Positions 2,234 to 54,576 of a stretch of DNA of 64,000 nt are shown here, piece after piece. Within the stretch, counting starts at the first letter, position 1, and each line of letters starts with the position of its first letter. The notes under the pieces are model-generated. The model was not told where the DNA came from. It searched no databases and saw only the letters and a program-made list of their open reading frames with translations. The DNA is from Acetofilamentum sp. (GTDB lineage: Bacteria; Bacteroidota; Bacteroidia; Bacteroidales; DYOH01), in the NCBI GenBank assembly GCA_020720625.1, contig DYOH01000009.1, positions 7,057 through 71,056 on the forward strand. The letters run 5' to 3'. Both the position numbers and the translations under genes were made by a program.

Positions 2234-3316
2234 TTATTCTTTAATTGCTTCGTAGCAATATGACGAAACTATGTCGCTGTGATAATCGTTGAGCAAATGT
2301 TCAAATTTATTGAGCGTTTTTTCCATACCGATATACGAACGTCCTCCGGCGGCATTTAAGTGTCCGCCACCATCGAAATGCTTTCTGGCAAACAAATTCA
2401 CATCAAAATTGCCTTTTGAACGCAATGACATTTTAATTTTTTGATCGTTCTCTATAAACAAAACCGAAAAGTATACTTCTTTGATATCCAATGGCATATT
2501 TACAAAGCCTTCGGTGTCGCCCAACTGATGATTGTATTGGGCCAATTCTTCTTTGGTAAGCCAGATATAGGCTGTATTGTGCTCAGGAAAAAATTTCATC
2601 TTGTGGTTAAGTGCAAATCCTTTCAATCGCATGCGTTCAAAACTGTATACCTGAAACAATAATCGTCTGATACGCTCTTTATCGATATGATAAGCAGAAA
2701 GTTCAGAAATAATCCCATAAGTCCTTGGAGATGCATCGTTGTAGCTAAAATTACCGGTATCTGTCATAATTCCGGTAAAAATACAGCTGGCTATAACTTC
2801 ATCAATTGGGGCAAGGTTCATCTCCAGCATAAATTCGTAGACAATTTCTGCCGCACTGCTAACCTCTATGCATGAAAAAACGTAAGGGGTATTTAAGTTT
2901 TCCGAAGGATTTGGATGATGGTCTATAACAATCTTCACTCCCTGAAAAGAGATTAATTCGGATGCCAGTTTATTGGTTCTTTCCCAATCATTAAAATCTA
3001 CACCAAATAAAATATCAGATTCATCGAGCAGTGCTTTGGCAGCCCCTGGCTGTTGCTCATAAACCAAAGTTTGCTCCACCTGCGGCATCCAGGCATAACT
3101 TTGGGCATAAGCATTTGGTGCAATTACTTTTGCCAAATGACCGGCTTTCACGAAATAATGCTTTAAGGCCAGAGCCGAACCTATAGCATCTCCATCGGGA
3201 TTGCAGTGCACCACAAGGGCAATCTTCTTAGGGGTCTCAAACAAACGAGCCAATTCATCTTTAGAATCAGCAAACAAATTTCTCTTCATGCTGGTGTAGC
3301 TATCAAAATAACCCAT
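2234..3316 (-). CDS. nrnA: DHH/DHHA1 bifunctional oligoribonuclease / pAp phosphatase
   Basis: HCNPDGDAIGS, IDHH, TDTGNF and GGGHLNAAG motifs; start may be the second Met (3289). Confidence 0.9.
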   Translation of the reverse strand: MGYFDSYTSMKRNLFADSKDELARLFETPKKIALVVHCNPDGDAIGSALALKHYFVKAGHLAKVIAPNAYAQSYAWMPQVEQTLVYEQQPGAAKALLDESDILFGVDFNDWERTNKLASELISFQGVKIVIDHHPNPSENLNTPYVFSCIEVSSAAEIVYEFMLEMNLAPIDEVIASCIFTGIMTDTGNFSYNDASPRTYGIISELSAYHIDKERIRRLLFQVYSFERMRLKGFALNHKMKFFPEHNTAYIWLTKEELAQYNHQLGDTEGFVNMPLDIKEVYFSVLFIENDQKIKMSLRSKGNFDVNLFARKHFDGGGHLNAAGGRSYIGMEKTLNKFEHLLNDYHSDIVSSYCYEAIKE

Positions 3317-3385
3317 AAAATTAGCAAATAGCTTGAAGTTTACAAGAAAACTGCTATTTTATGGCCTTATTTAGTTTTAATCTAA

Positions 3386-3868
3386 TTAAGATAAATATTT
3401 TCCATCAAAATTAAACGGCAATAACGATTTTGCATTTTCTACCATATCAATTTTTTGTTCTCCAACCATAATAATTTTTATTGGGTGATTAAAACGCATT
3501 TCGGTTTCAGTAATTACCTGTCGGCATGAGCCGCAAGGTGGAACCGGATCTACAATAGATTTTCCGTTTACAATTACGGCCACTGCCAGGCTTAAAACCT
3601 TCTGCTTTGGATATTGGGCATTGGCATAGAATAAGGCCACCCGCTCGGCGCATAATCCGCTCGGATAGGCTGCATTTTCCTGATTATTTCCTTGTATTAT
3701 AAGGCCATTCTCCAGCAAAACCGCTGCACCTACCTGAAAATGGGAGTATGGTGCATAGGCATTTTCGGCTGCTTCTCTGGCTTTGCTTACGAGTTCTTGG
3801 TCTATTTCTGTCAATTCGTTTTCTGAATCGTATTCATAAACGCGGGTAATAATGTCGCGGTGTTTCAT
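3386..3868 (-). CDS. cdd: Cytidine deaminase
   Basis: AYAPYSHFQVGAA, NQENAAYPSGLCAER and PPCGSCRQ zinc motifs; start placed at MKHRDI. Confidence 0.93.
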   Translation of the reverse strand: MKHRDIITRVYEYDSENELTEIDQELVSKAREAAENAYAPYSHFQVGAAVLLENGLIIQGNNQENAAYPSGLCAERVALFYANAQYPKQKVLSLAVAVIVNGKSIVDPVPPCGSCRQVITETEMRFNHPIKIIMVGEQKIDMVENAKSLLPFNFDGKYLS

Positions 3869-3947
3869 TTGTATCATTTTTTTTATTTTTTTTCCGACAA
3901 TCAAAAATTCCGGTATTAGTCTTGCTTCTATTTATCTGCTTTTAAAT

Positions 3948-4919
3948 TTAGTCTACTTCTAATTCGTATTGCTCTAATGAAAATCCTCTAAGTAATTCAT
4001 CGTTGCTCATTCGTTTTTTCCCTTCCACCTGAATGGCATTCAGCTTAATTATTGAATCTGATAAATGCACAATAATTTCCTTCTTTGCCAGCACATTCAA
4101 GGATATTTTACTCTGTCTTGCATGGGATATAAGCTCCGATTCAAAAATTTTCACAAGCAAACGTTCCTTGGTTTGTTTATGTTTAAAGTAAGTAAATGCT
4201 GCCGGATAGGGACTTAAGCCGCGAATGAACAAGTTAATTCTCCGGGCCGGCCAATTCCAGTTTATCTGGCAATCTTCTTTAAAAATTTTGGGAGCAGATT
4301 TTAATTGGCCGTCTTGGGGCATAATTTGCTCCATGGGGTGTATGTTGCCGCTAAAAATGGCATCCGCAGTTTCACAAACCAGCTTTGCGCCAGTTTCCAT
4401 CAGCTTATCGTGCAAACTACCGGCATTATCTTCGGGTAAAATGTCCAATTTTTGAGCGAAAAGTATTTTTCCTGTATCAATTTCCTGCTGAATAAAAAAA
4501 GTGCTAAGGCCTGTTTCTGTTTCTCCATTAATAATAGCCCAGTTTATAGGTGCGGCTCCTCTGTATTGCGGCAAAAGCGATGCATGTAGATTAAAAGTGC
4601 CCAAAGATGGCATTGCCCAAACAATCTCTGGCAGCATACGAAAAGCTACAACAATCTGCAAATCTGCTTTATAGGCCTTCAATTCGGCCAAAAAACCTTC
4701 GCTTTTCAGGTTTGTGGGCTGCAAAACCGGTATTTGCTTTTCTAAAGCATATTTCTTAACTGCCGACATTTGTAGCTGTCTGCCTCTGCCTGCAGGTTTG
4801 TCGGCAGAGGTAATTACGGCTACCACCGGGAAACCTTCATCTACAAGAGCTTTTAACGAAGCTACTGCAAAATCGGGAGTTCCCATAAAAACAATGCGTT
4901 TATCGTTCCACTTCTTCAT
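3948..4919 (-). CDS. fmt: Methionyl-tRNA formyltransferase
   Basis: RIVFMGTPDFA and NLHASLLPQYRGAAPINWAI; start at MKKWND avoids overlap with the upstream gene. Confidence 0.95.
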   Translation of the reverse strand: MKKWNDKRIVFMGTPDFAVASLKALVDEGFPVVAVITSADKPAGRGRQLQMSAVKKYALEKQIPVLQPTNLKSEGFLAELKAYKADLQIVVAFRMLPEIVWAMPSLGTFNLHASLLPQYRGAAPINWAIINGETETGLSTFFIQQEIDTGKILFAQKLDILPEDNAGSLHDKLMETGAKLVCETADAIFSGNIHPMEQIMPQDGQLKSAPKIFKEDCQINWNWPARRINLFIRGLSPYPAAFTYFKHKQTKERLLVKIFESELISHARQSKISLNVLAKKEIIVHLSDSIIKLNAIQVEGKKRMSNDELLRGFSLEQYELEVD

Positions 4920-4947
4920 ATTTGAAATTCGTCTATAGCGCACTAAA

Positions 4948-6012
4948 TTACTTATTTTTCCAGACATCCAAAAAAACAGGCAAATGATCGGCATAGCCTC
5001 CGTGATAACTTTGCCCGATATAAGTTCGGTTGGTAATATATCCGGTATAGTTTTTATCTACTTCGAGCAAATATGGTGCTGCAAATATATGTACGTCGTT
5101 TACACCGGTTCTGATCTTAGATTCCTGATTCAGCAATGTGCCCGAAACAATAAACTGATCGAGCACTCCCCATTCACCATCGTGCTTATGCGAACCTATT
5201 TTGCCAATGTCTTGCAGGTACGACGACAAATTATACAAATTTTCGGACCTGATATCATCAAAACTCCTTTCTGCCATCAAAGCCTCTGTAAGACTAATAT
5301 TATATGGATAATCGTTTAAATCGCCCATAATAACAATATTTGGATTTCTATCGGCCAGGTAAATAGAATCTACCGTTTTTCTCACCACAGAGGCTACATA
5401 CACCCTCCTACTCTCCGAATTCATCTGGCCGCCCCATCTGCTTGGCCAGTGGTTCACAAAAAAATGGAAAGTATCGCCAGCAGCTGTGCCTGCCTTTACA
5501 TACAAAATATCGCGCGTTTTGCTACCGGGTGCATCCGGAAAAACAATGGCTATGGGCTGAACTTTTATGGGATATATTTTTGATTGATTGTAGAGCATTG
5601 CCACATCAATGCCCCTATTATCGGGCGATTCGAAATGTAGTACAGCATAATCGCTATTCCATAAATGGGTTTTCTTTAATATGTCTTCTACCACTTTTCG
5701 GTTTTCAACCTCGCATAAACCCACCACATCGGGCAATTGCCAGCCACCAACTGCAGTAATTACTTTTGCCGTATTTCTTAATTTTGCATAATACTTATAT
5801 GTGCCCCAATAACGACCTCCTTCGGGCAAAAATTCTTCATCTGTTTTATCTGGCGTATCTATTGTATCAAACAGATTTTCAACATTATAAAACATAAACC
5901 GATAATCGCCTCTCTCGGGCAATTCGTAAGTTATTTCTTTTGATATTTTCTCAAAGAAATTACATCCGAAGAATAATATACTCAGCACTATAACAAAAAT
6001 ATACTTTTTCAT
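4948..6012 (-). CDS. Endonuclease/exonuclease/phosphatase (EEP) family lipoprotein
   Basis: Lipoprotein signal MKKYIFVIVLSILFFGC; motifs YNVENLFD, CEVEN, NHWPSR, GDLND and GGYADHLP; -7 box TATTTTTG at 6042-6049 (minus). Confidence 0.88.
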   Translation of the reverse strand: MKKYIFVIVLSILFFGCNFFEKISKEITYELPERGDYRFMFYNVENLFDTIDTPDKTDEEFLPEGGRYWGTYKYYAKLRNTAKVITAVGGWQLPDVVGLCEVENRKVVEDILKKTHLWNSDYAVLHFESPDNRGIDVAMLYNQSKIYPIKVQPIAIVFPDAPGSKTRDILYVKAGTAAGDTFHFFVNHWPSRWGGQMNSESRRVYVASVVRKTVDSIYLADRNPNIVIMGDLNDYPYNISLTEALMAERSFDDIRSENLYNLSSYLQDIGKIGSHKHDGEWGVLDQFIVSGTLLNQESKIRTGVNDVHIFAAPYLLEVDKNYTGYITNRTYIGQSYHGGYADHLPVFLDVWKNK

Positions 6013-6154
6013 ACTACAACAAAAGGGGTTGATAATTACCGCAAAAATAAGATAATGTTGAAAAGAAACGCAAAACAACTTTCAAAACATGGCATTTTTA
6101 ATTGATTTATCATAAAAATGTTGTAAATTATTCAGGCAAACAAAATCTTAAACC

Positions 6155-23335: not shown

Positions 23336-23863
23336 ATGAGAATTTTCTCACTAATTATTGTTTTATTGATTGGCTCTGATTATGCCTTTTCACAACACTC
23401 GCAAGATGTGCTAAAGGCTGTATTTACAGCACGTTTTATACAATTTAGTCAATGGGAAAACGAGGAAATATTCTTTCAAAAACAAGATAAATTCTATTTC
23501 TATTCTTTATCAGAAAAAAGTATTAATAACGAACTGGAAAAAACGCTTTCCAAAATTGTACTAAAAGGAAAAAAAGTAGAGTTTAAGAAAATTTCTGATA
23601 TAGAAGAAGCATTAGAAGCCAACGTAATTTTTTTAAGCGACGATTGTATAGAATGCATCGCATCTTTAATAAATGCAGTCGAAAACAAACCAATTCTTAT
23701 TATTAGTGATGCAGATAATTTTGCAGAATTTGGCGTACACATCAATATGTACATTACAAACAAAGGTACAATAGGATTTGAATTGAACATGAAAGCTTTT
23801 GAAAAATCGGGAATTATGCCCAATAGCGGTTTAATCAGAATGGGTAAAATTGTAAAACAATGA
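23336..23863 (+). CDS. YfiR/HmsC (DUF4154) family periplasmic protein
   Basis: Signal peptide; LKAVFTARFIQFSQW, PILIISDADNFAEFGVHINM, IGFELNMKAFEKSGI; ATGA overlap with a HAMP sensor kinase. Confidence 0.85.
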   Translation: MRIFSLIIVLLIGSDYAFSQHSQDVLKAVFTARFIQFSQWENEEIFFQKQDKFYFYSLSEKSINNELEKTLSKIVLKGKKVEFKKISDIEEALEANVIFLSDDCIECIASLINAVENKPILIISDADNFAEFGVHINMYITNKGTIGFELNMKAFEKSGIMPNSGLIRMGKIVKQ

Positions 23864-25965
23864 ACATATTTAGCAAACTATCTATAAAGTATAAAATAAT
23901 ATTTGTCAGCCTGATTATCACTATCCCATCGGTTTTAATAAGCAGCATGTTGATACTTTATCTTAATCTGAACACATTCAAAAACGAAATTATTCAAAAA
24001 TCGCTTACCGATGCAAAATTGGTTAATGAACTTATTGCCGCCCCTATGGCTTTCGATTATGCCGATCAGGTATATCAAATTATTGAAAAACTAATTAACC
24101 AGGAAAACATACTTTCTATTTATGTGCTTAATAATAAAAATGAAGTGATAAGCGAATACATAAAACCGGGAACACAAAAATTTTCGCTATCCCTGCGCAA
24201 CGAAAGTGAAATTAACTCCTACCGGTATGCTTTCGACGATATAAATACCTTACACATAGACTATACCATTTCCTTCGAAACCGAAAAATACGGAAATTTA
24301 ATAATTTATTCTGATACCGGAATCACTAAATATTTCTGGCACTCCTTGCAATACATAATCATAATTGGCTTAATCATTGGCCTACTCGCTTATATTGTAA
24401 TCTCCAGACTACAGATTATTATATCGGCACCCATTGTGGAATTAGCCGAAATTAGCCAAAAAATTACCGAAAACCAAGACTATACCATTACTGTTACAAC
24501 CAATTCTAAAGACGAAATCGGATTATTATACAATCAGTACCAAAAAATGTTGTACTCACTGCAAACAAAAGAAAAGGAGAATAGAGAAATAGTAGACAAA
24601 CTTAAGCAAAATCAACAAACCTTAATAAAAACGCAAGCAATTGCACGCATTGGAAGTTGGGAACGAAACTTTTTGACCAACGAAATAGTTTGGTCCGACG
24701 AAGAATACCAAATACTCGAACAATCCAAACATCTAATTCCAACTTTCGACGCAATCCTGGAAAACATTTATCCTGCCGACAAGCAAAATTTTTTAAACAA
24801 TTGGGAGAAAGCACTAAAATTTGGAGCAGAATACAATATCGAATTTCGGTACATGCGAAACTCCGGAATAAAATGGCTTCAGGAAAAAGCCGAAATATAC
24901 TTCGACAAAAACGGAAAAGCCTTGAAAGCACTTGGCTACACTTATGATGTTACCAAACGAAAAGAGCAAGAACTTGAGCTGCTCAAACACCGAAATAACC
25001 TTGAAGAACTAGTACAACACAGAACAAACGAAATTATACAACTCTATTCTGATATTGCCTTCAAAAATGAATTGCTCTATAAAATAAATTCGGAGCTAAA
25101 CAGCGAAAAACTTAAAGTAGTGGAGCAAAGCGAAAAAATAAACAGTGTAAATTCGAGATTACTAAAAAAAGCACAAGAACTTGAAAACACCTTAGGAAAA
25201 TTAAAATCGGCTCAATCGCAATTAGTGCAACAAGAAAAAATGGCTTCGCTCGGTACCTTAACCGCCGGTATTGCACACGAAATAAACAATCCAATTAATT
25301 TTATATCATCAAATATGATGGGTCTCGAAACATTACTATTTGAATTAAAAGAACAATTTGATAACTTGGCTGCTTTACAACCAGAAAATGGAAACATCAT
25401 AAAAGAGATAAATAGCAATATAAACCTGTTAATCAATAATATAAAGATTGGAATTAACCGAACTGTTGAAATTATTAAGAGTTTAAGAACATTCTCCAGA
25501 GATAGTAAAGAAAACTACTCAAATGCAAATATAAACGATAATTTGGACTCGACATTGCTGCTGCTTAAAAATCAGTACAAAGACAAAATAGAAATAATTA
25601 AAGAATATGGCCATATTTCTCCGGTATTTTGCTCCATCGGACAAATAAATCAAGTGTTTATGAATTTGATTTTAAATGCCATTCAGGCAATTACTGATGC
25701 CGGAGTTATCAAAATAAAAACCACCGAAGAAACCAATTTCTTAAAAATTACAATCGAAGACAGCGGAAAAGGTATACCGGAGGATATCAAAAACAAAATC
25801 TTTGAACCATTCTTTACAACCAAAGAAATTGGAAAAGGAACAGGCCTTGGCTTATCTATTAGCTACAACATTATAAAAAATCACAAAGGTGAAATAAAAG
25901 TAGAGTCAACTATTGGAAAAGGAACAAGTTTTTTTGTATTTTTACCACTAAATGAAAAAGCATAA
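23860..25965 (+). CDS. Membrane sensor histidine kinase (periplasmic sensor-HAMP-PAS-HisKA-HATPase)
   Basis: Two TM helices, HAMP ([14 protein letters not shown]), PAS (IGSWE...WSDEEYQI), H-box [33 protein letters not shown]. Confidence 0.92.
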
Positions 25966-27101
25966 TGATTAATTCGTCGGGAAGAATATTAGAACCAATA
26001 CTTTACATTGATGATGAAGAGCAAAACCTGACAGGTTTTAAATTTACATTTTATAAAGATTTTAAAATATTTACCGCAATCAACCAAGACGAAACTTGGA
26101 AAATTCTCGACGAACAAACCATTAAAGTTGTTATCTCTGACCAAAGAATGCCCCAAATTAGTGGAATAGAACTTCTCCAAAAAATTAACCAGAAGTATCC
26201 TTCCATTATTCTTATTCTTATGACCGGATACACTGATTTACAAGCAATAATAGACGCAATTAATAAAGTTGGAATTTTTAAATACATTGCCAAACCTTGG
26301 GAAAAAGAAGACGTAAAGCTTATTTTAAACAGCGCCATTAAAACATATAACCTAAGTTTCGAAAACGAAAACCTGATTCACGATCTAAAAATAGCTAAAG
26401 AGAAAGCCGAAGAATCCGACAAACTTAAAACTGCTTTTTTAAAAAATATTTCCCACGAAATAAGAACACCACTAAATGGAATGCTTGGTTTCTTAAATCT
26501 GATGCTTGAGCAAACAAAGGGAATTCCGAAATTCGAAAACTATGAGCTGTACATAAGAAACGGTGCCAACGAACTTTTGGATATTATTCAGAATATTGTA
26601 GAAATGGCCGAAATTCAAACAGAAAAAACCAAAACCCTTGTTGAAACATTTGAGTTAAATGCCCTTATTAATGCCATAAAACAGGAGTTCAAATCGAATG
26701 ATTTGTACTTGGATAACCCCAATGTACAGTTTAAGTGCAGTACTCCCGATATTCAGAATACAATTAATTCTGATAAAACCAAAATCAAGGAAATTTACAG
26801 ACATCTCATTCACAATGCACTCAAATTTACATCACAAGGTATTGTTGATTTTGGATACGAAATAAATAACAGCAAGCTAGAGATTTTTGTTAAGGATACA
26901 GGAATAGGAATTAAGCAAGAAGATTTGCCGCACATTTTCAACAGATTTTGGAAAGGCTACTTCGAAGACAATCTTTTCCGTGGTTTAGGAATTGGCCTTA
27001 GCATTACCAAATCGTATGTCGATGATTTACATGGTGAAATTTATGTAATCTCAACGCCCAATCAAAGTACAGAATTCAGAGTTATTATTCCCTTAAGCTG
27101 A
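25965..27101 (+). CDS. Hybrid receiver-histidine kinase (REC-HisKA-HATPase)
   Basis: YIDDE...SDQRMP receiver with conserved T and K; SHEIRTPLNG H-box, HNALKFT, DTGIGI, GLGIGLSI. Confidence 0.9.
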   Translation: MINSSGRILEPILYIDDEEQNLTGFKFTFYKDFKIFTAINQDETWKILDEQTIKVVISDQRMPQISGIELLQKINQKYPSIILILMTGYTDLQAIIDAINKVGIFKYIAKPWEKEDVKLILNSAIKTYNLSFENENLIHDLKIAKEKAEESDKLKTAFLKNISHEIRTPLNGMLGFLNLMLEQTKGIPKFENYELYIRNGANELLDIIQNIVEMAEIQTEKTKTLVETFELNALINAIKQEFKSNDLYLDNPNVQFKCSTPDIQNTINSDKTKIKEIYRHLIHNALKFTSQGIVDFGYEINNSKLEIFVKDTGIGIKQEDLPHIFNRFWKGYFEDNLFRGLGIGLSITKSYVDDLHGEIYVISTPNQSTEFRVIIPLS

Positions 27102-43196: not shown

Positions 43197-43733
43197 ATGC
43201 CTTCGAAAATAACATCAAAACTAATAGCAGAAATTCACGATAATCACGTAATTATTGCTTATCAGGGTATATTTGATAATTCGGTGCTTACAATATTAGC
43301 TCAAAATATTGAGAATAATGTGGATACTGATGAGAGACTAAAAAAGAAACTGTTCAAAATTTTTTTAGAAATGGCTCAGAATGTATCGCTATATTCCGAA
43401 GAAAGAAAAATGGTAGGAACTTCGGATATGGGCGAAGGCATATTTATTATCAAAGAATATGACGACCATTTTACCATAGCAACAGGAAATTTGTCGCCAA
43501 CGGCATACGCAGAAATGGTAATTGAGCACATAGATAAAATAAATGCAATGAACCGGGAACAATTGCGGGAGTATAAAAGGGAGAGAAGAGCTTTGCCTCA
43601 CGGGGCAAAAGGTGGAGCCAATATTGGGCTCATACAAATTGCACTTACCTCTGAAAACAAGATTAATTGCAGAATAGGCGAAAATCATGGGCAAAATGTT
43701 TTTCTGGCTTTAGCGACCCGAATAAATAAATAA
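43197..43733 (+). CDS. SiaB-family (DUF6272) GHKL-type Ser/Thr protein kinase
   Basis: AYQGIF, KKLFKIFLEMAQNV, IATGN, IDKINAMNREQLREY and GGANIGLIQIA match the SiaB pattern; upstream of PP2C phosphatases. Confidence 0.82.
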   Translation: MPSKITSKLIAEIHDNHVIIAYQGIFDNSVLTILAQNIENNVDTDERLKKKLFKIFLEMAQNVSLYSEERKMVGTSDMGEGIFIIKEYDDHFTIATGNLSPTAYAEMVIEHIDKINAMNREQLREYKRERRALPHGAKGGANIGLIQIALTSENKINCRIGENHGQNVFLALATRINK

Positions 43734-43740
43734 ATCTATA

Positions 43741-46700
43741 ATGAATTTCCCTTTCCGACATATTATCATTATTATATTTTCAGGTATATTTTTCAATGCC
43801 TTTGGGCAGGAACATTATTTCAGATTCGAACATTTATCTAACGAGCAGGGGCTTTCGCAAAACTCCATAAGCTCCATTGTTCAAGACAACAAAGGATTTA
43901 TCTGGATTGGCACTTACGATGGATTAAACAGATACGACGGACACAATATAAAGCTATTTAGAAACGACCCTAATCTGCCTTTTTCTATTGCCGATAATTA
44001 TATAAAAACCATTATGGTTGACGAAGAAGGAAAAATTTGGGTAGGCACAAATAGCGAAGGAATTTCTGTATATTTTCCGCAAACAAATAATTTTAGAACT
44101 ATCAGAAAAGATAAATTCAACCCCAATGGATTGAGCAATAACGAGATTAACGCTATTTTCATCGATTCGGATAAACAAATTTGGGTTGGAACCAACGATG
44201 GATTAAACCTTTTGAAAAAAGACCAGGAAGAAATTAGCGCCTACGAGGATAACGAAGAAAGCTTTATTGCACAGCAAAGTGGAATTCTGACAAAAGTATT
44301 TCAAAATTTTTTTCACAATGCTTCCAATCCCAATACTATTGCGGGAAATAAAATATCCGATATCGCACAAGTTGATGATATCTCGCTTGCCATATCAACC
44401 GAAAATGGTATTTCTATTTACAACAAAACCGATGATAAGTTCTCGATTTTTTGGAACAAAAGCACACAAAAAATCTTTATGAACAAAAATAATTATTTCT
44501 ATTTCGCATCCGAAAATAATTTATATTCAGCTTATTTCGATGGATATACATTATCGAAGCCCGAAATTATTATTCCCAACATAAAAGTTAAAGACATATT
44601 AGCCGACAATGAGGGTGTTATTTGGCTGGCAACCTCAGAAGGAATTATCTCGCTCAATGCAGAAAATAAAGCTGTTCGCAAAATATTAAATAATCCCCTA
44701 GATCCTAGCTCATTAACAGTTAACGATATTAACACCTTATTTTTCGACCGAACCCAGGTGCTTTGGGTTGGAACGGAACTGGGCGGCCTAAATAAATGGG
44801 ATCCGGGTTCTACCGGAATTGAACTTTACAGAAAAAACCCATTCAGCACTAATAGCATTTCATCAAACATGATAAGATCCATTTATAAAGATAAACAAAA
44901 TATCCTTTGGATTGGCACTGTTGATGGAGGATTAAACAAATGGGATCTGAATACAAATAAAATTAGCAGATTTTTACACAACCCAAAAGATAAATTCAGC
45001 CTCCCGCACAACCATGTAAGATGTATTTTCGAAGACGATAAAAATAATTTATGGATTGGCACCGACGGCAATGGTGCTTGCATTTTCGACAGAAAAACCG
45101 AAAAATTTATTCCAATAGAAATCGAAGGCCTTGAACCAGAAAACAAGCGAATTTGGCATATAGCTCAAGACCATAAAAAAGCTATTTGGCTGGCAAGTTT
45201 TGGCGGCGGATTAATAGAATACGATCCCATTACCAAAAAGTCTAAAATTTACAGGCGAAAAGCTGAGAAAAGCGGCAGTCTTACTGACAACCGCATTACC
45301 TTTGTATACGAAGATAATAGCAGAATACTTTGGGTAGGAACATTTGGCGGTGGATTGGAACGCTGGGACAGATATACCCAAACTTTTAAACATAATAAAT
45401 ACAGCAGAAAAGACCCTAAAACAATTAGTAACGACCGTATTTACACCATTTTCGAAGACTCGAAAAACACCATTTGGATTTCGACAAAGGCTGGCTTAAA
45501 TAAGTATCTGCCTGAAAAAAACGAATTTATACGTTTCACTGAGGCCAACGGACTTCCCAATAATGTAATCATGGGAATTTTAGAAGACGCACATCGAAAT
45601 CTTTGGCTTAGTACGAATAATGGCATTGCACGTTTCGATCTAAACGACTATTCTGTTGTAAATTACGACATGAATGATGGTTTGCAGAGTAATGAATTTT
45701 TGGTAGGAGCCTACTTTAAGGACCTTAGCGGAAAAATGTATTTCGGCGGAATTAACGGATTAAATGCCTTTTATCCGGAAAAATTACAATCGAACCAGTA
45801 TGTACCCCAAATTGTTATTCTTAATTTAAAAATAAACAATAAAAATGCCGAAACAATAGTAAACTCGCCCCTTTTGCAAAATATTACCTATACAAAAGAC
45901 ATTACTTTAAATTACGAACAAAACGTTTTTTCGATTGAATTTGCCGCCATGCATTTCTCTCAACCTCAAAAAAACAAATACATGTACATGCTTTATCCTT
46001 TTGATAAAGAGTGGATTAATACAGATGCAAACCATAGAACCGCTACATATACCAACATAGAACCCGGAGAATATATTTTTAGGGTAATAGGATCAAACTC
46101 CGATGGCGTTTGGAACGAAGAAGGTGTATCGCTGGTAATTAAGATAAATCCACCGGTTTGGCAAACCTGGTGGTTTAGAACCATCGTAATATTAAGCGTA
46201 TTGCTTGGCATTTTTTTTTGGTACTGGTCGCGTATTAATAGAATTAAAAATCAAAAGAAAAAACTAGAAGAAGAAGTAATTCTGCGCACCAAAGAAATTG
46301 CAGATAAAAATGATGAAATTACCAAGCAATCCAAAGAACTCGAAAAATTATCATGGGTAGCCAGCCAAACACAAAACGCCGTTATTATTATGTCGCCAAC
46401 CGGCGAAATAGAATGGGTAAATGCAGGCTTTAAACGCATGTTTGGTTATAAGCTCGGCGAATGGATTAAGCACAAATCTTCGAATATTATGGGGCCTGAA
46501 ACCAATGATATGGTGAAAGAACAATTTAGATTATGCACTGAAAAATCAAGACCGGTTACTTACGAACTTAAAGTGATGAAAAGAGATGGGTCTATTATGT
46601 TTGTTCAAGCAAATTTAGTACCCATACTAGATACTTCAAACAATGTAATAAAAATAATTGCAGTGGATTCTGATATTACGGATTTAAAAAAAGCTGAATC

Positions 46701-47553
46701 TGAAATTATTGCACAAAAAGAAGAATTAGAAGAACAAAAAGAACAGCTTGAACTGCAAAACAGACAAATTGCACAACAAAACGAAAACATAAAAGGCTCA
46801 ATAAGATATGCACTTACGCTACAAACCAATATATTGCCACTTGAAGAACAAATACAGGATTTTTTTAATACTTTTATTCTATATCAGCCCAAAGACATAG
46901 TTTCCGGAGATTTATACTGGTATCATCATCATAAAGATACAGACGATCATTTTTTAGCTGTAATAGACTGCACCGGCCATGGAGTTCCGGGAGCATTTAT
47001 GTCGCTTATCTCTAATAATCTGCTCAACGAAATTGTTATTCAAGACAAAATTCTTGTGCCTGCCGATATCTTATTTCAAATTGACCGACGATTAACCAAA
47101 TTTTTGAAACAAGACAAGAACGACAATACAGATGGTATGGATATTGCACTAACTAAAATCAAAATAAACCAAAAAATACTTAATGTAACTTTTGCCGGAT
47201 CTAAAAGACCTGCCATTATTTACAGAAAAGTAACAAATAATACAGAAATTATTAAAAGCAGCAGAAAAGCAATTGGCGGATTAATTGGAAAAAATCCGGA
47301 AAGTGAATTTTTAAATATAAATTTTTTGTTAAATCAAGGAGATATATTATTTTTAACCTCTGATGGATTTGCTGACCAAAACGACAAGGACAGAAAAAAA
47401 TTCGGTTCGACAAAGTTGATACAAGTTTTCGAAGAAAACGCTTCTGAATCAATGGAATACCAAAAAGAAGCACTTCTAAAAAAACTAGAAAATCACATGC
47501 AAGGAACAGAACAAAGAGACGACATTACAATAATTGGATTAAAACCCAAATGA
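43741..47553 (+). CDS. Membrane sensor phosphatase: beta-propeller (Reg_prop) repeats-Y_Y_Y-TM-PAS-SpoIIE/PP2C
   Basis: Many D-x-x-G-x-IWIGT repeats, YTNIEPGEYIFRV, PPVWQTWWF, PAS; PP2C motifs PKDIVSGD, DCTGHGVPGAFMS, DGMD, SDG, RDDIT. Confidence 0.92.
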   Translation: MNFPFRHIIIIIFSGIFFNAFGQEHYFRFEHLSNEQGLSQNSISSIVQDNKGFIWIGTYDGLNRYDGHNIKLFRNDPNLPFSIADNYIKTIMVDEEGKIWVGTNSEGISVYFPQTNNFRTIRKDKFNPNGLSNNEINAIFIDSDKQIWVGTNDGLNLLKKDQEEISAYEDNEESFIAQQSGILTKVFQNFFHNASNPNTIAGNKISDIAQVDDISLAISTENGISIYNKTDDKFSIFWNKSTQKIFMNKNNYFYFASENNLYSAYFDGYTLSKPEIIIPNIKVKDILADNEGVIWLATSEGIISLNAENKAVRKILNNPLDPSSLTVNDINTLFFDRTQVLWVGTELGGLNKWDPGSTGIELYRKNPFSTNSISSNMIRSIYKDKQNILWIGTVDGGLNKWDLNTNKISRFLHNPKDKFSLPHNHVRCIFEDDKNNLWIGTDGNGACIFDRKTEKFIPIEIEGLEPENKRIWHIAQDHKKAIWLASFGGGLIEYDPITKKSKIYRRKAEKSGSLTDNRITFVYEDNSRILWVGTFGGGLERWDRYTQTFKHNKYSRKDPKTISNDRIYTIFEDSKNTIWISTKAGLNKYLPEKNEFIRFTEANGLPNNVIMGILEDAHRNLWLSTNNGIARFDLNDYSVVNYDMNDGLQSNEFLVGAYFKDLSGKMYFGGINGLNAFYPEKLQSNQYVPQIVILNLKINNKNAETIVNSPLLQNITYTKDITLNYEQNVFSIEFAAMHFSQPQKNKYMYMLYPFDKEWINTDANHRTATYTNIEPGEYIFRVIGSNSDGVWNEEGVSLVIKINPPVWQTWWFRTIVILSVLLGIFFWYWSRINRIKNQKKKLEEEVILRTKEIADKNDEITKQSKELEKLSWVASQTQNAVIIMSPTGEIEWVNAGFKRMFGYKLGEWIKHKSSNIMGPETNDMVKEQFRLCTEKSRPVTYELKVMKRDGSIMFVQANLVPILDTSNNVIKIIAVDSDITDLKKAESEIIAQKEELEEQKEQLELQNRQIAQQNENIKGSIRYALTLQTNILPLEEQIQDFFNTFILYQPKDIVSGDLYWYHHHKDTDDHFLAVIDCTGHGVPGAFMSLISNNLLNEIVIQDKILVPADILFQIDRRLTKFLKQDKNDNTDGMDIALTKIKINQKILNVTFAGSKRPAIIYRKVTNNTEIIKSSRKAIGGLIGKNPESEFLNINFLLNQGDILFLTSDGFADQNDKDRKKFGSTKLIQVFEENASESMEYQKEALLKKLENHMQGTEQRDDITIIGLKPK

Positions 47554-50369
47554 AAATAAGTTATAGATACATAGCCGTTTTAATAGTATTATTTCTCTTC
47601 AACAGCAAACAAATGCTGGGGCAGGCAATGTCGCAAGATAAAATCAAATCCATTTACATACTTAATTTTGCACGATACGTTGAATGGCCAAATGCTCAAA
47701 ATCAAAAAGAAATTTCTATTGGAATTGTTGGTAATGAAAACATTTTCAACGAATTATTAATCCAAACAAAAAATAATGAAATAAACGGTTTGCCGATAAA
47801 AGTAATCTATTTTAAAAAAATTAAAGGGCTTACAAAGGTAAATGTGCTATACATCGACAATAAATTGAACGACTACGTAGTAGATGTAGTAGAAACCGTG
47901 CAAAAGCAATCTACACTTTTGGTTACAGACAGATACGAAAACCCTGACCATATTATGGTTAACATTTTGCCTTTGGATATTGGCAAAAAGCGCTACGAAC
48001 TAAACAAAGCTAATTTTACCAAAGCCAAACTAAAAGCTACCAACCAATTACTGCTTCACGGAGGCACAAGCGACGATATAAAGCTTATTTATACTGAAAT
48101 AGAAAATGAATTAAAAGAAAAAGAAACTCGCGTACAGGAACAAACCAAAATACTTGACGAAAAAATAAAAGAAAACGATAACCAGAAAAAAGCCATTGCT
48201 GAACAACAAAGAAAAATAGACGAACAAAAAAAGGAACTATCTACTTTACTACTTGAATTAAAAGTTCAGAAGGATGCCTTAGACAAAAATGAGCTTATTT
48301 TGTTAGAGCAACAAAATAATATGGAAGTACAAACCAAAGCGCTCGACGACCAAAACAAGGCCATTCAAGAACAAACATTAAGGCTTGAAGAACAGAAAGA
48401 AAAAGCAAATAAGCAAGAAAAAGCCATTGAAATAAAAACTAAGGAAGTTAGCGAAATTCAGAAAAAAATTGAAGCTCAGAAAAAAATCTTACGACAACAA
48501 GATGCCCTTATTCAAACCCAAAAAGGTATTCTCATCATTATTATAGCTTTTTTAGCCCTCTTGCTGCTTCTCGCATTTTTTATTTGGCGTGGTTATAGAA
48601 TAAAACAAAAAATAAACAAACAACTCGAAGAGAAAAACATTGCCATTAACCAGCAAAAAGAAGAAATTCTTGCGCAAAGTAAGCAGCTTGAGATTATTAA
48701 CCAGGAATTAGAAAAATTATCGATTGTAGCCAGTAAAACAGAAAATGCAGTTACCATTATGGATGCCCAAGGAAATCTGGAGTGGGTAAATGCCGGTTTT
48801 ACAAGACTTTATGGATATACACTGCAATTACTTACTAACGAAAAAGGGCTGAACATTATAAATATTAGTTCGAATCCGAATATTCGCAAGATTATTTATA
48901 ATTGCACTCACAACAAAAAAACCGAATTATACGAATCTCAGAATTATACCAGGCAAGGAGAAACCATTTGGGTACAAACCACCCTTACTCCCATCCTGGA
49001 CGACGATGAAAATGTAGTGAAACTAGTAGCTATTGAAACCGACATAAGACAATTAAAAGAAGCAGAAGAAGCTAACAGGCGATATAGCACACAAATATCC
49101 CGTCAGGCAGAGGAACTTCAGCTAAAAAACGAGCAGCTCGAAAAGCTTTCGATTGTAGCTAGTGAAACAGACAATGCCATTACTATTATGAACGGAATAG
49201 GAAATATTGAATGGATTAATGAAGGATTTACAAGACTGTTTGGATACAATTTGGACGAGTATCTGAGTCAGAAAAAAAATATTGTTTCGGCAGATACACC
49301 CGAAGAAACCAAAATATTGATACATAGCTGCATTAGAGAAAAACAAACGGCTAGTTTTCAGTCGAAGCTTAAAACAAGGCATGGCAAATATTTGTGGGTA
49401 CAAACTACCCTAACCCCATTGATCGACAAAACAGGAGGCGTTTACAAACTTATTGCCATTGACACCGATATCAGCAAATTAAAAGAAGCCGAACAGGAGA
49501 TAAGGCAGCAACACGAAGAAATTTTGCAGCAAAAAGAAACACTATTGCTGCAAAATGAAGAGATTCAGGCGCAAAGAGATAAAGTTGAACAACAAAACAA
49601 ACATATAAGGGGAAGCATAAATTACGCTCTTACTATTCAAAGGGCAATGCTACCATTATTGGATATTACAAATCAATACTTTAAATCCTTTATTATTTAT
49701 CGGCCAAAAGATATTGTCTCGGGCGATTTTTATTGGTTTTTTCATAAAGATGAAACCACGAGAACCTTGGCTGCAGTTGTTGATTGCACTGGCCACGGTG
49801 TTCCGGGGGCTTTTATGAGCATGATAGGTAGCCGCATTTTGAGCGAAATTGTGGCCGAAAGTAAACTTATCCGACCCAGCCAAATTTTAGAAGAATTAAA
49901 CATCAGAATTAAAAAAGCACTTAAGCAATCGCAAACCGAAAATAACGACGGCATGGATGTGTCATTGGTTTGTTTGTCGAAAATTGACGAACATAAAACA
50001 CGGGTGGTATTCTCCGGTGCTAAAAGACCATTATTCTTTTTCCGCAAAAGCGATAGTGAAATGGATATGATTAAAGGTGATCGAAAATCTATTGGTGGCT
50101 CAAGGTTAAAAAGGGTTGAGATTCCATTTACCGACAAAGAATTGTTTTTCGAAAAAGGCGATATGATATATCTTTTTTCTGATGGCATTATTGACCAAAA
50201 CGATTTTGACAGGAAAAAATTTGGTTCCCCCCAATTTATAGAACTTATTAACCAGGTAGCTAAGGAAAGTCTCGAATACCAACAGGAAATTATTACCCAG
50301 GCGCTCGACAAGCACCAAGGAAAAGAAGAGCAGCGCGACGACATTACCGTTTGGGGTATTCAGACTTAA
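47550..50369 (+). CDS. Membrane sensor phosphatase: YfiR-like domain-long coiled coil-TM-PAS-PAS-SpoIIE/PP2C
   Basis: Signal peptide, IKSIYILNFARYVEWP (YfiR), ~150-aa Q/E/K heptad region, TM, two PAS repeats, intact PP2C motifs; ATGA overlap with the upstream gene. Confidence 0.88.
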   Translation: MKISYRYIAVLIVLFLFNSKQMLGQAMSQDKIKSIYILNFARYVEWPNAQNQKEISIGIVGNENIFNELLIQTKNNEINGLPIKVIYFKKIKGLTKVNVLYIDNKLNDYVVDVVETVQKQSTLLVTDRYENPDHIMVNILPLDIGKKRYELNKANFTKAKLKATNQLLLHGGTSDDIKLIYTEIENELKEKETRVQEQTKILDEKIKENDNQKKAIAEQQRKIDEQKKELSTLLLELKVQKDALDKNELILLEQQNNMEVQTKALDDQNKAIQEQTLRLEEQKEKANKQEKAIEIKTKEVSEIQKKIEAQKKILRQQDALIQTQKGILIIIIAFLALLLLLAFFIWRGYRIKQKINKQLEEKNIAINQQKEEILAQSKQLEIINQELEKLSIVASKTENAVTIMDAQGNLEWVNAGFTRLYGYTLQLLTNEKGLNIINISSNPNIRKIIYNCTHNKKTELYESQNYTRQGETIWVQTTLTPILDDDENVVKLVAIETDIRQLKEAEEANRRYSTQISRQAEELQLKNEQLEKLSIVASETDNAITIMNGIGNIEWINEGFTRLFGYNLDEYLSQKKNIVSADTPEETKILIHSCIREKQTASFQSKLKTRHGKYLWVQTTLTPLIDKTGGVYKLIAIDTDISKLKEAEQEIRQQHEEILQQKETLLLQNEEIQAQRDKVEQQNKHIRGSINYALTIQRAMLPLLDITNQYFKSFIIYRPKDIVSGDFYWFFHKDETTRTLAAVVDCTGHGVPGAFMSMIGSRILSEIVAESKLIRPSQILEELNIRIKKALKQSQTENNDGMDVSLVCLSKIDEHKTRVVFSGAKRPLFFFRKSDSEMDMIKGDRKSIGGSRLKRVEIPFTDKELFFEKGDMIYLFSDGIIDQNDFDRKKFGSPQFIELINQVAKESLEYQQEIITQALDKHQGKEEQRDDITVWGIQT

Positions 50370-50491
50370 ATTGTGCCACCCAGGAACAAACTTAGCCAAT
50401 ACCATATTTCATCCAAGTGTATTTAGGATAAAGATAATGCTACATTTTAGCGCAACACGATTAGGTTAAAATATAAGCCCTTCTCACACAT

Positions 50492-50529
50492 AAAAAAAAA
50501 GCTGTATGACAAGTCAAACAGCTTTTTTT
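50492..50529. terminator. Bidirectional intrinsic terminator between the PP2C operon and rplS
   Basis: A9-GCTGTATGAC-AA-GTCAAACAGC-T7. Confidence 0.8.
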
Positions 50530-50548
50530 AGTAATGAAAAAATATTCA

Positions 50549-52356: not shown

Positions 52357-54417
52357 TTATAATTGTACACCTAAAACCAAAATATCATCAATTTGTTTGA
52401 ATTTATCGGCCTGCCATAATTTCAGCTCCTGATTTAGTTTTTGCTTTTGCGTTTCTAAAGGATGAACAGAAATTGAAACTAAAAAATCGCGATAGGCAGA
52501 TTTAAAATATTTTCGGCCTTTTACGCCACCTACCTGATCCTGAAAACCATCTGTTGATAAATAAAGTTTATCTCCTGCCGAAAAAGTTTTTGTAGTAGAA
52601 ACAAATGGCTCTTCGTTTCTCGATATTGCCACTGGCATGCGCTGTGAATCAATAATCTCAATATTTCTACCCGAAATAAGGTAGGCATCGTTGTGAGCAC
52701 CGCTAAATTCTAATTTAAATTCTTTTTTGTAAATTTTAACCAAAGAAATATCCAATCCATCTTTATTATCTGCAATAGATTTTTGCCCAAGTGAACTCTT
52801 TAATTTTGAACGTAATAGATTTAAAATATTGCCTAAATTTTGTTGATGTATGCTATCCATGTTGATTATTTCGTTGAGCAATGAAATACTTAATACACTC
52901 ATAAAAGACCCGGAAACTCCATGCCCTGTTGAGTCTGCAACAGCAAGATATATATATTCCTGATGCTGATAAACCCAGTAAAAATCGCCACTTACAATAT
53001 CGCGCGGAATATTGAGCACAAAAAAATCAGAAAATATAGCTCCAAGTGTATCATCTGAAGGCATAAGCGCCTTTTGAATCCTGCTGGCATAATTTATACT
53101 ATCGGTTATAAAAGTTTGCCTATCCTCTAATATTTTATATTGAATTTCAAGTAAATTATTTATATTCTGCAAATTGTTTGCCTGCACTTCGAGTTCCACA
53201 CTTTGCTCTTTTAATGCTTTATTCTTCTCCTCAATAAGCTGATTTGTTTGTGTTAATTGATTATTTATACGATTCATTTTCTTTCTGTTTCGGTTAAATA
53301 ATACCAAGGCCACAAAGCCTATCAAAATTAATATGACCAAAAAAGCGGAGATAAATGTAATTCGTTTTTTATACAATTCTTCTATCCGTAAATCGCGTTG
53401 CAATAATTCAATTTCCGATTGTTTTTTTAGCTGCTCCTTGCTAAATTCAATACTTGCAATTTGCTTGGAAACTTGCTCACTATAGAGCGAGTCTTTATAA
53501 TTATTCACCAATTGCTCATAAGAATAAGCGCGCTGATAATCTTTTAACGAACTAAAAACTTGTGCCAACTGCTCGCATGAGCGCATGGTTCTTAAATTGG
53601 AACGAACAACACGTGCGACATTTAAACTAATTGTGGCATAGTGTAAAGCACTGTCGAGCATATCTTTTTCTAAATAGAGTATAGAAAGCTGATTGCAATA
53701 ATCGGAGTATAAATCCTTATCTGCTTCAAAATTGCTATATTTTTGCGCAAGCTTATAGTATTCCATGGCCTTGGAGTAAGAATTTTTCTCCAACTCAACA
53801 TCGCCCAAATACTTATAGGTAACTCCAATTTTTTCAAAATCACTTGCTTGCTCTCTTAATTCCAGTGTTTTTTCCAAAAAAAACCGGGCACTATCAAATT
53901 TATTTAAAAGCAAATAAGATCGCCCAAGGTTTTGATAGGCATATCCCAATAAGTCTTCATTTTTTAATTTTGATGCAATAGGTAAAACCATTTGCAAGTA
54001 TTGCACTGATAATTCAGGTTTCTCCTGATAGAGATATAGGTTGGCAAAATTATTATATGCATATCCCAATTGATCTTCGTAGCCAAAATCCATTGCTAAA
54101 TCTACCGAATTTTGATAATTTTCTAAGGCTTGGGTATAAACACCCATATTGCGGTACAAAACACCTATAAAGCTATATGATTTGGTTAACTCGTAAGAAA
54201 AATTGTTTTTTGTTGAAATATCAATGGCTTCCTGGATATATTTTAATGCCTCACGTGGTTCAGAATTGCGCAAGCTCCATCCTATTTTATTGAGTGTTTT
54301 TGCTTTTGTTTCACCCTCTTGCTTTGGAAGCAAGTTGATGAGAGAATCTGTTTCTTGTGCCCTTAATGACAAAACACAAAAAATAAACACAACAAAATAA
54401 AGCAAGTATTTCTGCAT
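52357..54417 (-). CDS. Membrane sensor phosphatase: TPR repeats-TM-coiled coil-SpoIIE/PP2C
   Basis: Signal peptide from MQKYLL, TPR-like helical repeats, TM, PRDIVSGD, DSTGHGVSG, DGLD, TDG, IDDI. Confidence 0.88.
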   Translation of the reverse strand: MQKYLLYFVVFIFCVLSLRAQETDSLINLLPKQEGETKAKTLNKIGWSLRNSEPREALKYIQEAIDISTKNNFSYELTKSYSFIGVLYRNMGVYTQALENYQNSVDLAMDFGYEDQLGYAYNNFANLYLYQEKPELSVQYLQMVLPIASKLKNEDLLGYAYQNLGRSYLLLNKFDSARFFLEKTLELREQASDFEKIGVTYKYLGDVELEKNSYSKAMEYYKLAQKYSNFEADKDLYSDYCNQLSILYLEKDMLDSALHYATISLNVARVVRSNLRTMRSCEQLAQVFSSLKDYQRAYSYEQLVNNYKDSLYSEQVSKQIASIEFSKEQLKKQSEIELLQRDLRIEELYKKRITFISAFLVILILIGFVALVLFNRNRKKMNRINNQLTQTNQLIEEKNKALKEQSVELEVQANNLQNINNLLEIQYKILEDRQTFITDSINYASRIQKALMPSDDTLGAIFSDFFVLNIPRDIVSGDFYWVYQHQEYIYLAVADSTGHGVSGSFMSVLSISLLNEIINMDSIHQQNLGNILNLLRSKLKSSLGQKSIADNKDGLDISLVKIYKKEFKLEFSGAHNDAYLISGRNIEIIDSQRMPVAISRNEEPFVSTTKTFSAGDKLYLSTDGFQDQVGGVKGRKYFKSAYRDFLVSISVHPLETQKQKLNQELKLWQADKFKQIDDILVLGVQL

Positions 54418-54576
54418 ATATGTAATCAGATTAAATCCGAAAATTCTTATTCGCTTAACTTCAATGGAAGATTGAATCAAATATAATATAAATTTGCAAA
54501 TTAACTAAATGTATAGGCAAAGAAAAAATAGAATCCATTAATTTCACAAAAAATTAATTTTGCCGGAAGAATTAAC

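Follow-up and report, generated by a model that had tools for sequence, protein, structure and literature searches.

A SiaB-family kinase operon with two receptor phosphatases as a probable input cassette of a SiaABC-type switch network in Bacteroidales

Introduction

What does a SiaB-family kinase regulate when it is encoded together with two large receptor phosphatases, and neither the switch protein SiaC nor the diguanylate cyclase SiaD is encoded beside it? This question is raised by an operon at positions 43197 to 50369 of a 64,000-nucleotide stretch of DNA from Acetofilamentum sp. (Bacteroidales; assembly GCA_020720625.1, contig DYOH01000009.1, positions 7,057 to 71,056), which as a whole we refer to as the window. 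The initial annotation described the operon as a rewired three-gene system that works without SiaC. We conclude instead, with a probability of about 0.68, that the three genes form a cassette feeding a threonine switch network of the SiaABC type that extends across the genome, in which SiaC is encoded elsewhere and the predicted output is an ABCG-type exporter, not cyclic di-GMP (c-di-GMP). The operon probably works like SiaABC and is not a member of the SiaABCD systems, as it has no SiaC in cis and no SiaD.

Results

The features of the operon are as follows.

43197..43733, + strand: SiaB-family (DUF6272) GHKL-type serine/threonine kinase of 178 residues; G-box A[N/H]IGL, which assigns it to subfamily B2
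43741..47553, + strand: receptor phosphatase 1 of 1270 residues; signal peptide, beta-propeller/Y_Y_Y, transmembrane helix (residues 814-832), coil, PAS and SiaA-type PP2C
47550..50369, + strand: receptor phosphatase 2 of 939 residues; YfiR-like domain, periplasmic coil, transmembrane helix (residues 327-345), PAS-PAS and SiaA-type PP2C
48054..48527, + strand: periplasmic stalk of receptor phosphatase 2; 158 residues, free of proline and rich in E, Q, K and R, leading from the YfiR domain to the transmembrane helix

Open reading frames and Pfam matches agree with the gene order as first annotated, in which siaB is followed after a 7-nucleotide gap by the propeller-Y_Y_Y-PAS-PP2C gene, and this gene overlaps by ATGA with the one for YfiR-coil-PAS-PAS-PP2C. 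The three genes are likely co-transcribed. The kinase matched DUF6272 (E 2e-30) and passed the NCBIfam model NF038262, 'SiaB family protein kinase' (122.5 against a cut-off of 85); its score for the Pseudomonas equivalog NF038264 was 62.7, which is under the cut-off of 225. SiaB of P. aeruginosa (6kko) was its sole significant relative in the PDB (E 2.4e-9) and also the best fold match (TM-score 0.79) of a structure model with a predicted local distance difference test (pLDDT) value of 87. As previously noted, the G-box reads GGANIGL, compared with GAGLGL in P. aeruginosa SiaB. The N-box is intact, and its residues E58 and N62, together with N98 and G144, are invariant in 30/30 aligned domains. 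We use the label B2 for domains whose G-box has Asn or His in place of its middle glycine, a replacement that is thus present in 33/33 B2 domains by definition. In a tree of 51 SiaB domains, the B2 kinases formed a single clade (support 100/100). To judge by sequence, the GANIGL G-box is the mark of a kinase subfamily and not a sign of decay.

Receptor phosphatase 1 matched the Pfam families Reg_prop, Y_Y_Y, PAS and SpoIIE, and receptor phosphatase 2 matched DUF4154/YfiR (E 8e-20), two PAS domains and SpoIIE. The claim that all PP2C metal-binding motifs are intact was borne out for both proteins (D1057, D1076, D1208 and R1259-D1260-D1261 in phosphatase 1; D726, D745, D878 and R929-D930-D931 in phosphatase 2). 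Both share catalytic residues and an equivalent of R652 with P. aeruginosa SiaA, and they retain the SiaA residues named in the accessible part of 10.1101/674879, including the arginine that precedes the final Asp-Asp. The best PDB match for the PP2C domain of phosphatase 2 was SiaA (6k4e, E 1.7e-33; the next entry 7e-5), and the two proteins scored 164 and 184 for the SiaA equivalog NF038263, under its cut-off of 700. On sequence grounds both phosphatases are SiaA-type, and we support the earlier proposal that they would act on a shared switch protein. Their PP2C domains are 46% identical and are not sisters in the PP2C tree.

The sensors of the two phosphatases differ. The propeller/Y_Y_Y ectodomain of phosphatase 1 resembles PDB 4a2l (E 5e-112) and is followed by one transmembrane helix, an arrangement shared with the hybrid two-component sensors of Bacteroides (PDB 4a2l, 3v9f, 3ott); those sensors continue as a histidine kinase-receiver-AraC chain, whereas phosphatase 1 continues with PAS and a SpoIIE Ser/Thr phosphatase. 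The single transmembrane helix of phosphatase 2 follows the long coil, which places the coil and the YfiR head in the periplasm. A comparison of 21 rows, of which two duplicates were dropped, left 19 distinct homologues; the stalk was without proline in 19/19 and measured 145-165 residues in 16/19, with lengths of 151, 158 and 165 residues that differ by heptads. If it forms one straight helix, the 158-residue stalk would extend for ~24 nm at 0.15 nm per residue, which is close to the width of a periplasm and suggests that the stalked YfiR head senses the envelope. The YfiR-like periplasmic domain (DUF4154) is shared with YfiBNR and HmsCDE, which we take to be envelope-sensing systems in which a free periplasmic YfiR controls a membrane diguanylate cyclase. 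In contrast, the YfiR domain of phosphatase 2 contains no cysteines and is fused through the coil and transmembrane helix to PAS-PAS-PP2C, and no diguanylate cyclase was found in the genome. A PDB sequence search with the YfiR domain gave no match, and a LOV motif was absent from the PAS domains. In total, at least five propeller/Y_Y_Y phosphatases and five YfiR phosphatases are encoded in the source genome, so neither architecture is unique to the operon.

We counted profile matches for SiaC, SiaB, SpoIIE, GGDEF, EAL and STAS in the source genome, which is 98.5% complete. There were 11 SiaC matches, 0/11 on the contig of the window, and 0 matches each for GGDEF and EAL, searches whose controls were positive in 8/14 and 6/14 genomes, respectively. 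These counts indicate that SiaC is missing only locally and that SiaD is not found. The initial observation that the window holds no SiaC or GGDEF gene is thus correct, with the SiaC absence confined to the window, and its expectation that the output is not c-di-GMP agrees with the census. A canonical siaC-siaD locus elsewhere, which would have counted against the initial reading, is half borne out: the genome does have siaB-siaC loci, and no siaD was found. Residue 68 of the 11 SiaC proteins is Thr in 10 and Ser in 1, and the Y-x-N-T motif is shared with P. aeruginosa SiaC. The genome also encodes 10 SiaB domains in 8 genes, with SiaB-SiaB and SiaB-SiaB-SiaC fusions included, and 46 SpoIIE matches in 45 open reading frames, 43/45 with the SiaA-type SGD motif and 41/45 with a predicted transmembrane helix. 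HATPase_c gave 58 matches, part of which are not kinases. Three STAS matches were found, none near a siaB locus, and on contig C3 one gene for an ECF sigma factor is transcribed divergently to a siaBB-siaC locus. The second kinase domain of the tandem fusions (L021 2992-4113, L024 3698-5251) has a degenerate G-box, and in the tree these domains group in a clade of their own. On contig C44 (L022 6588-11512), an orphan siaC directly follows, in the same orientation, a tandem pair of RelA/SpoT genes.

The order was sampled with 151 genomes, the source genome included. SiaC occurs in 68/151 (about 45%), with at least 10 copies in 39 genomes, and six or more SpoIIE matches were present in 58/68 SiaC-positive versus 0/83 SiaC-negative genomes; match counts per genome saturate near 20. 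GGDEF was found in 8/151 genomes, 2 of which are SiaC-positive. At E <= 1e-45, a threshold of our own choice, B2 kinases occur in 23/151 genomes, and all 23 also have SiaC and many SpoIIE proteins.

The B2 kinases are associated with a particular SiaC clade. SiaC was encoded within 900 bp of 26/33 B2 domains and belonged to clade C2 in 26/26 (SH-aLRT 99 in a quick tree, with 1/26 assigned by the tree and not by the motif rule); 7/33 were without SiaC. B1 domains were accompanied by C1 SiaC in 14/14 cases. We also surveyed B2 loci in species genomes, taking the best 80 of 250 matches. C2 lay within 7 kb in 66 of these loci, B1/C1 alone in 7 and no SiaC in 7, several of these cut off by contig ends; PP2C was present in 55. 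With 11 SiaC proteins encoded elsewhere in the genome and C2 as the usual neighbour of B2, the notion of a rewired system without SiaC is not upheld. The survey was seeded with B2 motifs and is therefore unfit to test motif conservation. The threonine is retained in 105/115 C2 SiaC proteins; the 10/115 without it (L122-L201), 8 of which have proline, may be fixed-state paralogues. The source genome has four B2 genes and two C2 SiaC genes, on contigs C33 and C83, the latter in the order siaB-siaC-siaB-YfiR-PAS-PAS-PP2C. On C33 (L019 9524-13476), siaB2-siaC2-siaC1 is convergent with cheA-cheY, as it is in genomes G002 and G003, and a further che cluster of the source genome lies on C81. Among phosphatases near B2 with a readable tail, 38/65 in the best 80 of 250 loci are of the QRDD type (SiaA R652), compared with 8/45 genome-wide, and the type is present in 14/19 B2-adjacent phosphatases of the PP2C tree. 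Orphan B2 genes amid phosphatases recur in other families with varied receptors (L069, L078). A conserved non-phosphatase output beside B2/C2 was sought and rejected, as the neighbours that recur do so within groups of close relatives.

Both canonical siaB-siaC loci of the source genome (contigs C78 and C120) adjoin a gene for an ABCG-type exporter of ~1030 residues, whose 248-residue head is TerB-like in 22/22 members and also contains a weakly matched FHA-like fold. The head occurs in 68/151 genomes and in 62/68 SiaC-positive genomes. When 150 listed heads were compared with 150 listed siaC genes, 42 heads lay directly behind siaC in tandem and 24 were convergent, in 49 genomes. A complex model of SiaC and the exporter head, built for the C120 pair (B1/C1), scored 0.81 (best control 0.00), a mark reached by 116/157 solved and 2/215 mismatched pairs; the alignments behind this score are our own, so the calibration holds roughly. 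At least 88% of contacts agreed between runs, with a partner pLDDT of 93. SiaC docks in the model through residues 65-72, 75 and 103-114, and T68 contacts exporter residues S76 and T124, each retained in 21/22 exporters; V77 is invariant (22 sequences). The same face is named for SiaD binding in the available part of PMC8457831, which describes bonds of T68 to S82 and Q86 and a block of binding upon phosphorylation. The model supports a predicted binding of SiaC to the exporter. PDB searches found no solved complex of SiaC with an exporter head.

Other candidate outputs were rejected. A canonical FHA reading of phospho-SiaC is disfavoured by the weak fold match (Foldseek E ~0.01), by the absence of the canonical FHA motifs G-R and S-x-x-H, and by the modelled interface, which falls on the TerB part of the head. 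Other TerB heads as SiaC targets were set aside, as a good match to the head profile was found only in the two exporters. A pattern for the SiaD-type docking helix I-S-D-x-Y-Q, built on residues from the accessible portion of PMC8457831, was run against the signalling proteins of the source genome; its strict form matched 10 times, the medium form once and the loose form 16 times, with 0 matches in SpoIIE proteins. A sensor-less protein on contig C137 (L081 1294-2769), with an N-terminal coil, a class III nucleotide cyclase (adenylate cyclase) and an HD domain, is a possible synthase-hydrolase and switch target; it lacks a SiaD-type motif, no sia genes adjoin it, and we did not retain it as the output. 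SiaC fusions gave no further clue, since a weak search of 110 candidates yielded only one, SiaB-SiaC. Both exporters are accompanied by a lipoprotein-like protein of ~300 residues and a small secreted protein without a convincing Pfam match (L017 6209-7561, L018 6299-7754). Upstream of the PP2C-siaB-siaC-exporter operon of C120 lie genes for two membrane proteins with GAF domains that have no output domain (L018 14927-19039).

Two further features of the window lie beyond the operon.

50489..50532, no strand assigned: hairpin (-14.9 kcal/mol) with A and T runs at its flanks, between the operon and a convergent ribosomal protein gene
52357..54480, - strand: third receptor phosphatase, TPR-transmembrane-SpoIIE, QIDD type, 2 kb from the operon

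The hairpin is likely a bidirectional terminator; it is not among the sites of a consensus terminator scan, and promoter and terminator scans gave no more sites than shuffled sequences. The TPR phosphatase belongs to the genome-wide network and not to the siaB operon. Four independent metagenome runs span the operon stretch without indels, with one contig bridging 42658-48970. Among the 39/55 coding differences listed, 26/39 were synonymous and 0/39 fell in a catalytic motif. The metagenomes are recorded as biofilm, cave and soil, with no RNA data set among those listed, and the closest named relatives are uncultured Bacteroidales or Bacteroidetes genomes. The proposed synteny held in part: the operon order beside fabG is retained in the close relatives G002 and, across a contig break, G001, but G003 shows only siaB and the propeller gene beside fabG, as far as the contig extends, and has no close orthologue of the YfiR phosphatase (best match 28%). 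The window also encodes, at 23336-27101 (+), a stand-alone yfiR, a HAMP-PAS histidine kinase and a receiver-kinase. Orthologues of this trio (kinase 49% identical) lie directly 3' of the siaB-phosphatase operon in G002, which suggests that the two groups of genes were once joined or are functionally linked. Polysaccharide-use genes were not found flanking the operon.

Discussion

In the reading that we propose, a periplasmic sugar is the likely ligand of the propeller/Y_Y_Y head, and the YfiR head on its stalk probably monitors the outer envelope. Their signals would pass through the transmembrane helix, coil and PAS domains to order the linker and thereby dimerise and activate PP2C, as in the linker mechanism of phosphatase activation described in PMC12143880, the accessible part of which makes no mention of Sia. 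The B2 kinase would phosphorylate the Thr68 equivalent of the C2 SiaC proteins from C33 and C83, and the two QRDD-type phosphatases would dephosphorylate the same residue. Unphosphorylated SiaC would place Thr68 onto the S-V-[R/K] helix of the exporter TerB head through its SiaD-binding face, and phosphorylation would block this docking. The docking step is predicted for the C120 B1/C1 pair and extended to B2/C2 by analogy. We consider it probable from the model that the B1/C1 channel ends at the exporter; for the channel of the window this is a tentative extrapolation, as the model used another SiaC/exporter pair of the genome, and we hold it less likely than not.

Several observations weigh against the proposed network and its output. 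Besides the approximate calibration of the complex score, the modelled pair belongs to C120 and not to the channel of the window, and the docking face of C2 differs (A107 is mostly E, G108 is replaced by V, I or L, and I114 is mostly E or D). A TerB-headed exporter lies within 7 kb in 0 of the best 80 of 250 B2 loci, and B2/C2 may have another output. The head occurs without SiaC in 6 genomes and a single SiaC without the head in 6, and two exporters do not obviously fit 11 SiaC proteins. The co-occurrence counts are overstated, as relatives among the sampled genomes are not independent. The PP2C tree is weakly resolved, with B2-adjacent rows requiring 9 changes, and the paralogous phosphatase of C83 is not QRDD. 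In favour of the extension, one B2-C2-exporter tandem locus (L079), whose kinase groups with that of the window in one small subclade (95/82), retains S76, V77 and T124; its exporter, behind siaB2-siaC2, is split in the assembly into open reading frames of 789 and 264 residues (2859-6103, G002:C116).

Of the alternatives, the one that survives best is an RsbT/RsbU-like two-tier cascade, in which C2 holds B2 and freed B2 activates the neighbouring phosphatases, which then act through C1 SiaC on the exporter. Such a cascade would explain why B2 is found directly against phosphatase genes even without SiaC (the window, L069, L078 and L178-type loci), why 23/23 B2 genomes also have SiaC and many SpoIIE proteins, why B2 shares operons with C1 or B1 (C33, L154, L197) and why the surroundings of B2/C2 contain no other conserved gene for an output; the available text of PMC12143880 describes activation of RsbU by RsbT through its linker. 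However, the receptors have no match to the RsbU N-terminal domain, and SiaB as an activator is absent from the Sia literature consulted; we regard the cascade as unlikely. We give clearly less credence to B2 as a pseudokinase that sequesters SiaC. The replaced glycine of all B2 domains (by definition of the label) and the degenerate SiaB halves of tandem fusions are what such a role would predict, but of the residues other than glycine Asn occurs most often in left-handed turns, the N-box residues, N98 and G144 are invariant, the kinase model has the fold of 6kko, and most C2 partners retain their threonine. Slightly less probable again is a self-contained system in which a phosphatase heterodimer and the kinase have a substrate other than SiaC, for instance a STAS protein, since although the gene order recurs in G001 and G002, siaB and the propeller gene in G003, and three STAS matches exist in the genome, the two PP2C domains are not sisters, G003 has no close YfiR orthologue, B2 orphans recur with varied receptors, and the STAS proteins could be served by a separate phosphatase of the RsbU type (C23).

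The SiaABC-type network that we favour shares the SiaB-fold kinase with SiaABCD of P. aeruginosa (PDB 6k4e, 6kko, 6kkp, 7e6g; 10.1101/674879, PMC7278518, PMC8457831), a single operon there, compared with 8 kinases, 11 SiaC proteins and 43 SiaA-type phosphatases here. Unlike SiaABCD, it lies in a genome without SiaD or other GGDEF proteins, its phosphatases lack the I-S-D-x-Y-Q helix, and it features a kinase subfamily with an altered G-box, propeller and YfiR-stalk sensors and an exporter as predicted output. A GHKL Ser/Thr kinase, a PPM phosphatase with a coiled-coil linker and a STAS-like switch are elements in common with RsbT-RsbU-RsbV-RsbW and the SpoIIE-like expansion of Streptomyces; here, however, DUF1987 takes the place of STAS as the switch, a consistent link to a sigma factor was not seen, and nearly all phosphatases are membrane receptors. 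An expansion of this size has precedent in the 46 SpoIIE-like phosphatases of S. coelicolor, according to the accessible part of PMC2887360. The available portion of PMC8457831 suggests that DUF1987 proteins modulate adjacent proteins, and that of 10.1101/2022.03.11.484041 reports modules similar to Sia in Campylobacterota; a further SiaABCD paper, also available in part, is PMC12834913. Within a literature coverage that excluded most subscription papers and all supplements, we found no paper on Sia systems in Bacteroidota, and none came from searches for a SpoIIE expansion in Bacteroidetes, YfiR-SpoIIE or propeller-SpoIIE; a search for TerB, FHA and ABC transporter in Bacteroidetes also found none. 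The large Bacteroidales variant of SiaABC is apparently unpublished, and the present analysis contributes a census, the proposed B2/C2/QRDD sub-channel, the periplasmic stalk of the YfiR sensor and a specific docking prediction.

Taken together, our results indicate that the operon is one ordinary node of a network, distinguished by its B2 kinase subfamily and its stalked YfiR sensor. A broader picture, which we hold at somewhat less than even odds, is that many uncultured Bacteroidales possess a c-di-GMP-free network in which dozens of receptor phosphatases, with receptor Ser/Thr phosphatases as numerous as histidine kinases, act through insulated SiaB/SiaC channels, with SiaC docking by its phospho-threonine site on a TerB-headed ABCG-type exporter to turn it on or off, and that the window holds the inputs of a second channel (B2/C2/QRDD) with a YfiR ruler that spans the periplasm. 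SiaABC has so far been studied only as a single Pseudomonas operon controlling one cyclase, and the same chemistry appears here at the scale of the whole cell, as a network present in ~45% of the genomes sampled from an order nearly without c-di-GMP enzymes. The predicted contact between Thr68 and the exporter serine offers a way to examine what SiaC does in the absence of SiaD, for which two small soluble proteins would suffice, and, if true, would represent an unusual mode of switching an ABC transporter.

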